Origin: Eledone cirrhosa
Taxonomy: Eukaryota
Direction of reading: 5' to 3'
DNA: 64,000 nucleotides
Assembly: GCA_964016885.1 (NCBI GenBank)
Contig: OZ024755.1
Span: forward strand, 9,734,001 to 9,798,000
The translations under genes were made by a program, and so were the position numbers. Shown here in pieces: positions 17,860-61,281 of the stretch. The notes under the pieces are model-generated. The model was not told where the DNA came from. It was given only the letters and a program-made list of their open reading frames with translations, and did no database searches. How positions within the stretch are numbered: the first letter of the stretch is position 1; each line of letters begins with the position of its first letter.

Positions 17860-18629
<770 letters not shown>

Positions 18630-29065: not shown

Positions 29066-29413
29066 GGAGGCACATGGCTTAGTGGTTAGAGCATTGGCCT
29101 TGCAATCGAAAGGTTGTGAGTTCAATTCTCAGACCGGGTGATGTGTTGTTTCCTTGAGCAAGACACTTTATTTCACATTGCTCCAGTTTACTCAGCTGTA
29201 GAAATGAGATGATAGGGACTGGGGTGCCTATCATTCCACTGCAAAGTGGTCGTGGAGGTGCCACGGCAAAAATGCACCCAGCACTCACTGTAAATGAGGT
29301 TGGTGTTAGGAAGGGCATCCAGCTGTAGAAATCATGCCAGAATCAGTTCCCGTCCCACCCCTGCAAGCAGGGAAAAGTGGACGTAAAAATGAAATGAAAT
29401 GAAATGAAATGAA
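29066..29413 (+). mobile_element. Full-length tRNA-derived SINE with RTE-type tail
   Basis: A box TGGCTTAGTGG, B box GAGTTCAATTC, central GTTAGGAAGGGCATCCAGCTGTA, (GAAAT)n tail. Confidence 0.9.
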
Positions 29414-29415
29414 TT

Positions 29416-29754
29416 CATCATCATCATTTCATTTTACGTCCACTTTTCCCTGCTTGCAAGGGTGGGACGGGAACTGATTCTGGCTTGATTTCTACAGCTG
29501 AATGCCGTTCCTAACACCAACCTCATTTACAGTGAGTGCTGAGTAATTTCTTGCCGTGGCACCTCTATGACCACTTTTTAGTGGAATGATAGGGACCCCA
29601 GTCCCTATCATCTCATTTCTACAGCTGAGTAAACTGGAGCAATGTGAAATAAAGTGTCTTGCTCAAGGAAACAACACATCACCCGGTCTGAGAATTGAAC
29701 TCACAACCTTTCGATTGCAAGGCTAATGCTCTAACAACTAAGCCATGTGCCTCC
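29416..29754 (-). mobile_element. Full-length tRNA-derived SINE, same family, inverted
   Basis: Near-identical reverse complement of 29066-29390; truncated copies at about 14283-14530 (+) and 16630-16913 (-). Confidence 0.9.
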
Positions 29755-30309: not shown

Positions 30310-30351
<42 letters not shown>

Positions 30352-30406
30352 TGAGATTCTACAGGACTAGAACTGTTTCATTCTTTAGAAATCATCAGGA
30401 ATCTCA
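30352..30406 (-). ncRNA. Type I minimal hammerhead ribozyme motif (family A, left arm)
   Basis: Minus strand reads TGAGATTC-CTGATGA-tttctaaagaat-GAAA-CAG-ttctagtc-CTG-TA-GAATCTCA: 8-bp stem I, short stem II, stem III, GUA site. Confidence 0.75.
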
Positions 30407-30408
30407 AT

Positions 30409-30457
30409 GATTCCTGATGATTTCTAAAGAATGAAACAGTTCTAGTCCTGTAGAATC
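30409..30457 (+). ncRNA. Type I minimal hammerhead ribozyme motif (family A, right arm)
   Basis: GATTC-CTGATGA-tttctaaagaat-GAAA-CAGttctagtcCTG-TA-GAATC. Confidence 0.75.
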
Positions 30458-30540
30458 TCATCTATATTAAAACTTTTATACTCTGCAATGTATTGAGTAC
30501 CTTACTTACTGTGGTTACCTCCGATTCAACCCGGAATAAC

Positions 30541-30589
<49 letters not shown>

Positions 30590-37962: not shown

Positions 37963-38305
37963 GTTGAAACATCTATAAATGTTTTTGTTTCTAAAAACTA
38001 TAGAGAGCCATCCAATCGTAAATGATTTTTTTATCCAAACAGAAACTTTAGTCTTTATGTGTCCTTTCTCAGTGTCACATCCTAGATTGTTTGAAATATT
38101 TGACTAGATATATACTTCGAAAACAGGTTTATTGTAAAGAAACAATTATATTTCTTTCATTATAACTTTAATAACTCCAAGTTTATGTAATAGTCCCTTA
38201 AATGAATATATCTATATCATCTATGTGATTTAAACCATTACAAGCTCCCTAACTATAACAGCAATCCAGGTGATAACTCTCTCTCTCTCTCATATATATA
38301 TATAT

Positions 38306-38474
38306 AACGAAGGAGTTGTGGTAAGGAACCAGATGGACCATAACGCACCAGAGTACTCAATACTTAGGGTAGTAGAGTGGGTAACAGAAAGTATGACCCC
38401 GACGGCAGAGCTCAAGCCGTTTCGACGGCTATTTCTGGACTCTTGAGCTCTGCCGTCGGAGTCATACTTTCTCC
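38306..38474 (-). mobile_element. Family B palindromic element
   Basis: Minus strand carries GAAA-CGGC-ttgagctct-GCCG-TC-GGGGTC; short inverted arm; flanked by (TA)n. Confidence 0.6.
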
Positions 38475-38602
38475 TATATATATATATATATGAATTATTT
38501 TCCCACATCTTACGTTAACTATTTTTCCATTTTGACGTTATAGTCACTTATATATTATGAAATACTCTTGGCTTCACGCTCACAATAATTTCTATACTTT
38601 TC

Positions 38603-38636
<34 letters not shown>

Positions 38637-38720
38637 ATATGCAGTTGACAGCTGTGGGAAAGGAGTATTTAGTACCAAAGTAGAGTTTTAATATTCATTT
38701 TATTATGGCTGAATAGTGAG

Positions 38721-38826
38721 TCTTGTTACTCTGGAGTTTCGCCTGTTGATCACAGGGTCATCAGACAAGAACTTGATCCTGTCTGATGACCCTGTGCTAA
38801 ACAGGCGAAACTCCTGTGTAACATGA
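38721..38826. ncRNA. Back-to-back hammerhead pair (family C): 38721-38770 minus (intact), 38777-38826 plus (diverged)
   Basis: Minus strand reads TCTTGT-CTGATGA-cCCTGTgatcaACAGGc-GAAA-CTCcaGAG-TA-ACAAGA; all three stems pair. Confidence 0.8.
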
Positions 38827-39026
38827 TTCACTATTCAGTCTTAATAAAATGACGATATATATATGTGTGTGTTTGAGAGACGAGGAAAAAAAGAATAAGA
38901 ATAAAGAAGAGATGGAGAGAAAGTAAAAGAAGAGAAAGTAAAAGAAGAGAAAGTAAAAGAAGAGATGGAGAGAAAGTAAAAGAAGAGATGGAGAGAAAGT
39001 AAAAGAAGAGATGGAGAGAAAGTAAA

Positions 39027-46227: not shown

Positions 46228-46264
46228 CTGTTCCCCACCGATAAACATCGTATTCTAAGCCCAT
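46228..46264 (-). CDS. PFKFB: PFKFB putative first coding exon (MGLEYDVYRWGT+G)
   Basis: ATG at 46264, 37 nt, then donor CAG|GTAAAT. Phase 1 matches exon 2. Lies in a non-repetitive, CpG-richer region. No homology evidence for this exon itself. Confidence 0.6.
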
Positions 46265-58127: not shown

Positions 58128-60874
58128 TTAATACTATTATCATAAACATTACCACCATCACCCCCCACCCCCCATTATCACCGCCACCACCACTTATTGA
58201 CATTGGATCTGACCATGGTGACACTATTCATTTCTGTCCCCCTCCTCTATAAGACTCCTTGTTGACATTTACCACTCCCCCCTCCCTCCTTACAATCCCC
58301 CATATCTGATGATAAATGAGATGGGGAGAGAAGACTTTGCTGACATCTCTCTCTCTCTCTCTCATGTAGTACCCATTTTTCATCCTCTCCTACCATGACA
58401 CAACCCAATTGCTATCCTGTAACCTTACTCACCCATCTAACCAGCACCACCACTACCATAACCCTCTCTCCCCTACCACCTTGCTATAGAAACCATGCCA
58501 AAAAACTGAACACACTGAGGTAGATGTAGTTCCTGCCCCCTCAGTCGACCAGCCCATCAAGGAGGACAGTAGCTTCAATTAAGTAGAGGCTGTCTATAAT
58601 GACCACTCCAATTTATAATAGCAAGGAAGAACGGATGTAAAATGATAATACAGGAACTTTGTACAGGATATTAATACCTACATGTATATACACATAGGTA
58701 TTAATATTCTGACATATACAGACATTTATGCATATACACAAATACACACACATATATATGTATATACACATACGTACATATATATATACACATACATACA
58801 TATATATATACACATACATACATATATATGTATATATAAGCTAGCAAGGGAAACAGACAGTAAATGTTTGTGTTTGTATGTGTGTGCGCACATGTATACC
58901 TATATTGATATCCTCTTCCATTTCTATAAGTAGTTTTCAATATAAAGGATGTTATGCAGACAATACTACCCCACCAGCTTTTGACATTGATCCCTACTGA
59001 TTTCAAGGTCAGCAGACCAATTAACCCCCAACCAGTCCAGGTTCTATCATACAAGTGTTATTTAAACCGGCCGTATCTGGACAGAATTCTCTCACCTCCT
59101 GTTCAAACCGGCTGTAACCGTCCACCCATACTTATGTTAAGGTATTGTTCTCAAAATAAATAACATCAAAATCTCATAGATTCAATATTATGTGAGGTAA
59201 AGCCTTTACCATGAAGATATAATAGTAAATATAGAGTAAGGTAAATGATAAAGGGTTTAACTGTTCATATTCATCTAAAAACTTACCAACAATTTTATAG
59301 AAGAACTTTTATAAAGTTGTGCTCCAAACATCAGATAAATAATGAGAAAATTATATCACTAAATCTTTCCAAATTTCAGATTATTTTCAACATTTGAAAA
59401 CCATATACATTAGAATTCATCATCATTATCACCGTTTAACGTCCATTTTCCATGCTAGCATGGGTTACAAAAGGGTTAAAGTGTTTATATTTATCTAAAA
59501 ACCTTCCATAATAATTCTATGTAAGAACCTTTAAGTTATGTTTTAAGCATCAGCTTAATAATAAAAAAGTTATATTACTAAATCTTTCTAAATTCTTGAT
59601 TATTTTCGAAATTATTTGAAAGTCATAGGGAGGGGTTTTTCACATTATACCACCACCAAGGCTAAGGCTGGTCTCATATCACCAACACCACCACCACCCA
59701 AACAAGACCTGGATCTCTATAATAAAGCTGGTCTCATACCACCATCACCACCACTCAGGCATGACCTGGTTCTCTGACCAACCCAGTCACAGTCAACACA
59801 TGCCAGTATGGAAAATAGATGCAAAATGATGATGATGATGACAATGATATGTGCATGCATAGAAGAATATGCTAAACATAGGGTAGAGAGGACCCTTCAC
59901 TTGTGTCAAAGATACGTCTTTAGTGCTGCTACCATAGTAGAGAGGGCATGTCACTCGTGTCAAAGATATGACAACTTCTCTAATGCAGGTGTTATCATAA
60001 AATTCACCCAGTACACTGTAGAGTGCTGGAATGTATGTGAGATTCAGGCCCCTGGCCCATCTGAATGGTCAGTTGCTCCAATTAAGTGCTGACAGTCTGT
60101 GGAAGAACAAACGTTAAATGATGATGATGATGATATGTTAAATGATATATGCAGTGGGGATTTATATGAGCACAAGAAATATATTCAGTAGTAAGTAAAT
60201 ATACGACACTTACCAAATGATAATCCTTGAGAATAGCAGGGCATATCTAAGACATATGTTGATGAGATAAGATAGAAGAAATATTTCACTGTCCTAACAG
60301 CAACTCGTGTCAAATAAATAATCAGATTTCTTCATACAGAAGTTTATATATACCAAAGAGTGTGTAACTGAGAGAAAGAGAGCGAGATAGAGAGGAGGAG
60401 GCCACCAGGAAATGTTTCAATAGCCTAAGCCTGAGTCATTTTAATTAATTTGTTTAAACAAAATATGACTAGAGAATCACATCCAGGAAAGTTCTTTAGC
60501 CCACACACACACAACTGATGTAAATACAAGATGAATTACAAACAGACAGAAATGATAGGGAAGACAATTTGCTCCAAAGATATTGTTAACCTTCAGAATA
60601 TAAAACAATGAAATCAAACAACCAGTATATATAGCATATACATATATATATATTATTGGCAATATGACCCTCCCAAAGCATAACAACATTATATATATAT
60701 CATCATTTCATTTTACGTCCGCTTTTCCCTGCTTGCAAGGGTGGGACGGGAACTGATTTTATATATATATATATATAATTGTTTCTACTTTAGGCACAAG
60801 GCCAGCAATTACCCAGTACATTACTGGTACTTTATTTTATCGACCCCGTAAGGATGAAAGGCAAAGTCATATAT

Positions 60875-61070
60875 AATGAAGGAAATGTGGTAAGGAACCA
60901 GATGGACCATAACGCACCAAAGTACTCAATACTTAGGGTAGTAGAGTGGGTGATAGGAACGAATAGGACCCCGACGGCTGAGCTCAAGCCGTTTCGACGG
61001 CTAATTCTGGGTCCAGAATTAGCCGTCGAAACAGCTTGAGCTCAGCCGTCGGGGTCCTACTCGTTCCTAT
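60875..61070 (-). mobile_element. Family B palindromic element
   Basis: 58-bp inverted arms 60953-61010 and 61013-61070; flanked by (TA)n. Confidence 0.65.
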
Positions 61071-61160
61071 ATATATATATATATATGTTATTCCGGGTTG
61101 AATCGGAGGTAACCACAGTACTCAATACATAGCAGAGTATAAAAGTTTTAATATAGATGA

Positions 61161-61259
61161 GATTCTACAGGACTAGAACTGTTTCATTCTTTAGAAATCA
61201 TCAGGAATCAGATTCCTGATGATTTCTAAATAATGAAACAGTTCTAGTCCTGTAGAATC
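61161..61259. ncRNA. Back-to-back hammerhead pair (family A): 61161-61209 minus, 61211-61259 plus
   Basis: Same motif as the 30.4 kb copy; 66-bp inverted arms with a 1-nt spacer and one mismatch. Confidence 0.75.
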
Positions 61260-61281
61260 TCATCTATATTAAAACTATATA

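Follow-up and report, generated by a model that had tools for sequence, protein, structure and literature searches.

A 199-bp unit in an intron of the octopod Eledone cirrhosa carries two hammerhead motifs on the opposite strands of a perfect palindrome, inserted between two (TA)n tracts, and the question that it raises is how such an arrangement comes into being and whether the host gene makes any use of it. We have compared the unit with its relatives across the genome, as well as within the window, i.e. the whole stretch of 64,000 nucleotides that was analysed. In our judgement the unit is probably a minimal head-to-head insertion of the 5' leader of a Penelope-like element (PLE), consisting of its pseudo-LTR (pLTR) and tail, and is formed afresh with every insertion, through twin priming on a transcript that had not been cleaved.

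The palindromic unit, its hammerheads and its host gene

The two arms of the unit are exact reverse complements of 61 bp each, separated by the loop TCAAT (Table 1); no other perfect palindrome with arms of at least 20 bp and a loop of less than 30 nt occurs in non-simple sequence of the 64-kb window, except for two of 20 bp. Folding of the unit as RNA gives a predicted free energy of -114.2 kcal/mol (z -20.4), which was equalled by 0 of 200 shuffles. The sequence-only reading, made before this analysis, had described the perfect 61-bp arms and the flanking (TA)n tracts as we find them, while the tail, to which it had given 70 bp, measures 72 bp.

Table 1. Positions of the unit, of its parts and of related features (window positions unless a contig is named)
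Feature	Position	Strand	Remarks
(TA)n tract, left half of target site	30320-30349 (outside the short arm: 30320..30342)		sequence
Short arm: pLTR leader, beginning with the G of GATTC and reaching the short 3' end (arm position ~59-66)	30343..30403	-	type I hammerhead, same strand as the PFKFB pre-mRNA
Junction loop TCAAT	30404..30408		differs among copies
Long arm, part 1: type I hammerhead	30409..30469	+	motif reading
Hammerhead parts of the plus arm	stem I 30409-13/30453-57; CUGAUGA 30414-20; weak stem II 30421-32; GAAA 30433-36; stem III 30436-39/30448-51	+
Long arm, part 2: Penelope tail	30470..30541	+	in full-length copies, followed without interruption by the leader of the 713-aa ORF
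(TA)n tract, right half of target site	30542..30583		sequence
Second copy of the 199-bp family, reversed	61081..61276		minus-strand long arm, loop of 1 nt, small tail deletion
First PFKFB coding exon shared by the isoforms (6PF2K domain), bounding the host intron downstream	18468..18593	-	starts at 18593
Alternative first coding exon of PFKFB	46229..46264	-	MGLEYDVYRWGT, then GT donor; matches isoform annotated in a related octopus
Second alternative first coding exon of PFKFB	60215-60253	-	GT donor at 60253; matches isoform annotated in a related octopus
78-bp satellite array	contig C28 from ~30,496,700 (L157:7727-9001 onward)	one strand	higher-order period ~311 bp
Small 78-bp array	contig C1:350,200,300 (locus L158)

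The host gene, PFKFB, is located on the minus strand, with matches to the 6PF2K and histidine-phosphatase domains, and ten of its exons match a named octopus protein, most of them at 90-100%. Since the common exon starts at 18593, and the alternative first exons lie at 46264 and 60253, the unit appears to be situated in the first coding intron of the two corresponding isoforms; this placement, which is based on the proteins of relatives rather than on RNA, agrees with the earlier assignment to PFKFB intron 1. The first exon of other isoforms, MSLKSSVPLLNK, was sought in the window and not found. The same intron contains, about 600 bp from the unit (29066-29754), a tRNA-derived, SINE-like inverted repeat of 323 bp (95%), which is a longer source of double-stranded RNA than the 199-bp unit.

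Both arms contain the core of a type I hammerhead (CUGANGA, GAAA, NUH, helices I and III) in the form of CUGAUGA, GAAA, stem III ACAG/CUGU and a GUA triplet, with predicted cut sites after 30452 on the plus strand and between 30360 and 30359 on the minus strand. Stem I comprises 5 bp in the plus arm and 8 bp in the minus arm (TGAGATTC/GAATCTCA), where it is lengthened by the TC of the loop; stem II, on which the sequence-only reading is silent, is weak, having 3 bp and a U-U mismatch at the place where helix II is usually closed by G10.1-C11.1. Motif reading thus upholds what had been proposed about the opposed type I cores and the cut after 30452, while a stem I of GATTC/GAATC holds for the plus arm and not for the minus arm. 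The same reading had staked the motif on covariation of its stems among genomic copies, and helix I does covary between sister families (GATTC/GAATC, GCTTC/GAAGC, TCTTGT/ACAAGA and ACGGTG/CATCGT); the loop of helix II is variable across these families and its stem is kept. A search with Hammerhead_1 models, also proposed at that stage, has a different outcome: for a 231-bp stretch, the one hammerhead family that Rfam returns is Hammerhead_3, with 16.5 and 14 bits where the gathering score is 48.5, in an output that hides three clan overlaps and does not list Hammerhead_1, and over the whole window it returns no hammerhead at E values up to 1. Many miRNA hairpin matches were also returned by Rfam for the 231-bp stretch, and have been dismissed as meaningless.

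In the predicted ensemble of a lone arm, the hammerhead fold has a share of 0.03% (plus arm) or 0.1% (minus arm), and in that of the whole unit a share of about 1e-55; helix III is predicted to pair at -12.8 kcal/mol as an interrupted dimer, against -1.4 kcal/mol as a hairpin. The accessible text of Cervera and de la Pena 2014 (PMC4209133) describes minimal PLE hammerheads that share with the octopod motif the type I topology, an extra base after A9, a short helix I and an interrupted, palindromic, dimer-capable helix III, the latter a usual feature of the hammerheads in metazoan PLEs, whose cleavage as lone units is poor; these hammerheads have G10.1-C11.1, whereas the short octopod helix II with its U-U resembles that of the axolotl HHR_Amex2, for which weak monomer cleavage is reported (PMC7229834). 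The ribozyme in the window is predicted to be weak as a monomer, and the hairpin would block it in any transcript; because of this predicted weakness of the lone arm, the hairpin lock exists in principle, but there may be little for it to lock.

The genomic family and its parent element

A genome search with the unit has yielded 1,206 candidates, and all of the 40 copies that were scored are full length, at 97-100% identity, ending precisely on the right side. Exact patterns have located 1,124 palindrome centres and 7,717 arms genome-wide, with 0 control matches in either case; the arm pattern is required to reach GATTC, so that arms truncated inside the ribozyme lie outside its sample. The arm matches are divided between the strands as 4,992 and 2,725, an excess that is largely explained by the 78-bp head-to-tail array described below, since its junctions lie nearly all on one strand. 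Among the first 100 exact-pattern arms, which are all located on contig C1 and are otherwise unselected, 88 have ends that run into TA repeats.

The complete and near-identical scored copies, covering all 199 bp up to a precise right end, are what would be expected if the palindrome were itself a SINE- or MITE-like master, non-autonomous and mobile as a whole. The loops, however, are not those of an inherited centre: 25 different loops occur among 45 loci, the arms of which are nearly invariant. Loci L001-L030 were picked by likeness to the window copy, which biases the loop counts towards TC, and the argument from loop variation rests instead on the genome-wide palindrome-centre pattern; one locus (L116) that duplicates another (L115) was dropped, and this duplication indicates that the assembly may hold some duplicated haplotype. 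Furthermore, the spacing between opposite arms forms a continuum from 0 to about 7 kb, and the whole unit is without a surrounding terminal inverted repeat. The reading as a master element is therefore largely refuted, and we attach next to no weight to it. That the loops differ while the copies are 97-100% identical indicates that the palindrome is likely rebuilt at each insertion; the unit in the window is one of more than 1,000 near-identical, 199-base Penelope leftovers, likely debris of a mobile element and not a device of host control.

The loci with arms several kb apart contain an ORF. In full-length copies, an intact ORF of 713 aa is located directly behind the arm and tail, with its ATG 180 nt after the G of GATTC, and in most full-length loci the arm and tail that precede it have 96-100% identity; at least 73 genomic places match the ORF P0001 at 95-100%, many of them with open frames, and one locus (L161) has direct pLTRs at both ends, about 6 kb apart. 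The ORF of locus L151 contains the motifs YRDDG, SSDKTKN (DKT), RWR, CNCLNKEAC (CxCx5C), CDLCISE and NKLSEHCPNCMH, and its protein has the GIY-YIG-like VYKC..TYIG, together with CDLC and CMH; Pfam places GIY-YIG below its cut-off (E 0.022) and gives no match to a reverse transcriptase (RT) family in the parent ORF. Both hallmarks of a Penelope pLTR are present, namely the leader of an element with RT and GIY-YIG and the inverted, 5'-truncated copy with a one-sided tail, and the truncated inverted pseudo-LTR that had been recognised in the unit from its letters alone can now be traced to the parent behind the arm and tail. The 180-nt leader contains 3 or 4 upstream ATGs at L151 and other full-length loci, 2 or 3 of them inside the hammerhead.

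The closest counterparts that we have found are the C-terminal EN+ PLEs of the Hydra clade (Craig et al. 2021, PMC8557442), which, in the available sections of that paper, likewise have a single ORF with RT and C-terminal GIY-YIG, DKT in place of DKG (here SSDKTKN), a CxCX5C linker, no CCHH, and CxxC and CxH around a conserved E and N (the linker, cysteine and histidine motifs being read by eye in the octopod protein), as well as a pLTR hammerhead, (TA)n targeting (here in the 88 of 100 arm ends), copies that are inverted and truncated at the 5' end and, in some cases, a tail. The octopod family differs from the clade in having RWR at the place of RWK, a tail of about 67-72 nt instead of 30-40 and a very high recent copy number, with more than 1,000 minimal palindromes in the octopod genome. 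Elements of the clade are shorter than 3 kb; the octopod ORF measures 2.1 kb, its 3' UTR contains long TA/TG microsatellite tracts, and the pLTRs of L161 lie about 6 kb apart. The hosts of the clade include Mollusca, and the same sections name no cephalopod family. The parent is a recently active, autonomous PLE with Hydra-clade motifs, its placement in the clade being made from motifs and not from a tree.

Formation of the head-to-head arms

The 5' ends of the arms are concentrated at one site: at this end, 40 of the 100 arms lie within 0-2 nt of the A before GATTC, as against 11 that stop 3-29 nt upstream of it (p ~1e-30), and the remaining 49 continue into upstream element sequence. An inverted partner within 20 nt accompanies 31 of the 40 arms that end at this +1 site, and the other 9 have no partner; with 9 solo arms at +1 and 49 arms that run upstream among the 100, the palindrome is one insertion product among others. 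In 52 upstream-bearing arms, picked by a CCAAT-like box, TATAAATA is found 31 nt before the G of GATTC in 37, 33-38 nt before it in 12 and not at all in 3; the stop site of the arms is an initiator-like A, 30 nt after a TATA box, and CCAGATT at +1 fits the initiator consensus. We infer that the A before GATTC is the start of transcription. Since an AG preceded by a run of T coincides with the +1 site, a splice acceptor is an alternative reading, which would count against twin priming; in the Penelope of D. virilis, an intron ends at helix I (PMC4209133, available part).

In only 57 palindromes do the two arms stop no more than 20 nt from the place of ribozyme cleavage, and an arm starts exactly at the cut site in 4 of 50 among those listed (hand count). 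That so few palindromes end there argues that the copied RNA is mostly uncleaved; the start site, the cap and the lack of cleavage are all read from DNA junctions. At least one arm has GA before GATTC, in place of the CA of the parent, in 22 of the 50 listed loops, and 10 of these 50 loops consist of a single A or T (hand counts). A copied cap G is the simplest reading of the GA, although a fold-back at stem I yields identical letters; the loop TC may likewise represent a copied cap G plus A+1.

The 3' ends of the arms fall into two classes, at positions ~59-66 (59-72 where the alignment enters TA) and 130-133, and 41 of 44 inverted pairs combine a long with a short arm; the exceptions, which have been kept, are two loci with tail deletions (L052 and L062) and one with a neighbouring insertion (L078). 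In the 44 palindromes, 9 changes are shared by both arms and 18 are private, a variant of the stem-II loop is present in both arms in 6 of 6 carriers, and the difference within pairs is 2.1%, against 5.7% between loci, which points to one template for both arms. Losses at the inner ends are asymmetric, which favours an independent synthesis of the two arms: 7 of 24 long partners start at position 31-77 beside a complete short arm (in four cases at 55-77, adjacent to the short priming site), whereas such a loss occurs in 0 of 14 short partners. Of 29 long arms selected by their tail, 9 begin between positions 7 and 43, and in 1 of 15 pairs of this set it is the short arm that is cut.

Twin priming, the reading that we consider probable, is built on features that we have observed, i.e. 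the parent, its copy numbers, the concentration of 5' ends at one site, the pairing of long with short arms, loops that vary and insertion into (TA)n. In this reading, the pLTR contains a TATA/initiator promoter from which a capped mRNA would start at the A that immediately precedes stem I of the hammerhead; the RT-endonuclease would nick both strands of a (TA)n target, and cDNA would be primed at two internal sites of the RNA, located about 66 and 133 nt from its 5' end. Both cDNAs would run off this 5' end in the manner of strong-stop DNA, the long one having to displace the short one and sometimes stalling, and their 3' ends would be joined with a few untemplated or slipped bases, leaving a palindrome with a tail on one side only, in which the twin hammerhead would be a passenger, locked in the hairpin in any transcript and likely decaying neutrally. 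The asymmetric losses from long arms would fit two primers on one RNA, since the long cDNA would have to displace the short one; they could also be deletions that followed insertion.

Fold-back self-priming, in which a single cDNA or an antisense template copies itself and the endonuclease resolves the product at the short site, likewise predicts pairs of long and short arms and shared variants, and the loops TCAT, TCATC and TCATCTTA match a stem-I fold-back. The base after TC is nevertheless variable (A 12, T 5, C 5; hand count of the listed loops), solo short arms that start at +1 do occur, and in the 7 of 24 pairs described above the short arm has 30-76 nt that are absent from the long arm, which copying could supply only with a later deletion. 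We regard fold-back as unlikely, even though it is the interpretation given to junction palindromes in the Penelopes of Adineta vaga (Arkhipova et al. 2013, PMC3846280). As far as the available part of that paper shows, those elements share with the octopod family the head-to-head inverted pLTRs, the one-sided tail, the TATA box and initiator in the pLTR and the palindromic junctions; their few copies are explained by self-priming on antisense RNA, whereas the hundreds of independent junctions in the octopod favour two primings on the sense transcript.

A more specific form of twin priming, in which the palindromes are abortive strong-stop products, made with strand displacement on a capped, uncleaved mRNA that begins with the hammerhead, seems to us evenly balanced between being right and wrong. 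If true, it would explain the head-to-head pLTRs and the one-sided tail of Penelopes in one step, and the ribozyme would be an off-switch in the 5' leader, decapping its own mRNA or trimming tandem read-through RNA, rather than what produces the template. In the Anolis element Poseidon PAc (Frangieh et al. 2024, PMC11167929), two RT start sites bound the tail, as inferred here, and in vitro both target strands are nicked and extended on an uncleaved RNA template at AT-rich targets; its hammerhead overlaps the start codon, whereas that of the octopod forms the very 5' end of a 180-nt leader, and the accessible text describes no head-to-head products.

To judge from the accessible literature, inverted truncated pLTRs with a one-sided tail, the TATA box and initiator of the pLTR and pairs of hammerheads on opposite strands are already in print, the latter as the dual motifs of Schistosoma, which lie 100-700 bp apart, whereas the octopod arms are directly apposed (PMC4209133). 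The formation of inverted pLTRs and tails, as well as the role of the hammerhead in Penelopes, are still called open in the available parts of PMC8557442 and PMC11167929. A literature search that covered few subscription papers, and neither Repbase nor the supplements of Craig et al. 2021, found no account of the octopod family or of Penelope twin priming; what is new here is the octopod family, its scale and the junction statistics that point to twin priming on the uncleaved 5' leader. A single genome here offers upwards of 1,000 independent junctions as well as dozens of intact ORFs, which makes this young family a useful natural data set for the Penelope mechanism, in which twin priming and fold-back are testable against each other by counting and in vitro.

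Proposed host role and sister families

On the minus-strand PFKFB pre-mRNA the antisense arm precedes the ribozyme arm, as the sequence-only reading had maintained, and its further claim, that the ribozyme should be locked in a long hairpin, accords with the predicted ensemble of the whole unit. It had inferred that the hairpin would let the host pre-mRNA tolerate the ribozyme and would supply double-stranded RNA on which ADAR editing or Dicer could act; on this view, the palindrome would be kept since it locks the ribozyme and thereby spares the host pre-mRNA, and would be a regulated substrate of ADAR or Dicer. The very stable hairpin, with the antisense arm made first, is in line with this proposal, and double-stranded RNA formed by repeats in introns is a usual target of ADAR; the monomer fold, however, is predicted at no more than 0.1% of the ensemble, with U-U at the base of stem II, solo and run-on arms are made as well, and the window copy is young, one among more than 1,000. 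Some filtering of unpaired ribozymes is plausible, given that tandem retrozymes are rarer than expected in Xenopus introns (bioRxiv 10.64898/2026.07.22.740005, available part).

An older sister family, family B, has been used to follow the decay of such units. In 29 loci, the best matches to the window copy, the two arms have a mean identity of 87% and diverge independently (298 private changes vs 27 shared), the catalytic core is mutated at 5.2%, against 5.1-5.3% elsewhere, and an intact core remains in only 31 of 58 arms, so that hairpins and cores appear to decay neutrally. A seemingly better conservation of the core (5.5% vs 7.9%, p 0.03) vanished when private changes only were counted (p 0.19 for all columns; p 0.92-1.0 without edge or polymorphic columns). 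Since the ribozyme is predicted to be weak and this older family decays neutrally, no host role is supported; a palindrome kept for the benefit of the host is very improbable, and as a regulator of PFKFB the unit is likely without consequence.

Family B is represented in the window at 38546-38855 (query part 38640-38855) by a palindromic twin hammerhead with stem I TCTTGT/ACAAGA, the centre of which is located at the 5' edge of stem I; it has 2,293 candidates in the genome, the best ones at 82-87% identity. A third family, at 60877-61063 and 38300-38476 of the window, forms a long and short palindrome between TA tracts, with a hammerhead of which just the 3' half is present (GAAAC, stem III and GUC), folded inside stem II. 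With a looser pattern, at least 4,206 head-to-head CUGAUGA pairs have been counted, against 97 in controls, belonging to several families with covarying stems, and they constitute a large potential source of intronic double-stranded RNA; the lineage of Eledone cirrhosa is known for heavy A-to-I editing.

The same hammerhead also occurs as a 78-bp head-to-tail satellite, with 1,755 junctions, at least 1,752 of them on one strand, the unit of which corresponds to pLTR positions of about -14 to +64. Non-LTR retrozymes consist of head-to-tail units with a hammerhead (PMC7229834 and bioRxiv 10.64898/2026.07.22.740005, both in their available parts), an organisation that is found in the 78-bp array and not in the head-to-head unit of the window; the array is visibly cut from the pLTR, and its period of 78 bp is shorter than the 150-450 bp described. 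It looks like a very small array of the retrozyme type, the ribozymes of which could work as dimers, and possibly it was the same end of the pLTR that seeded this satellite, which may be among the smallest retrozymes. An unrelated 18-bp satellite of at least 351 copies (L157:1-6342) adjoins the 78-bp array.
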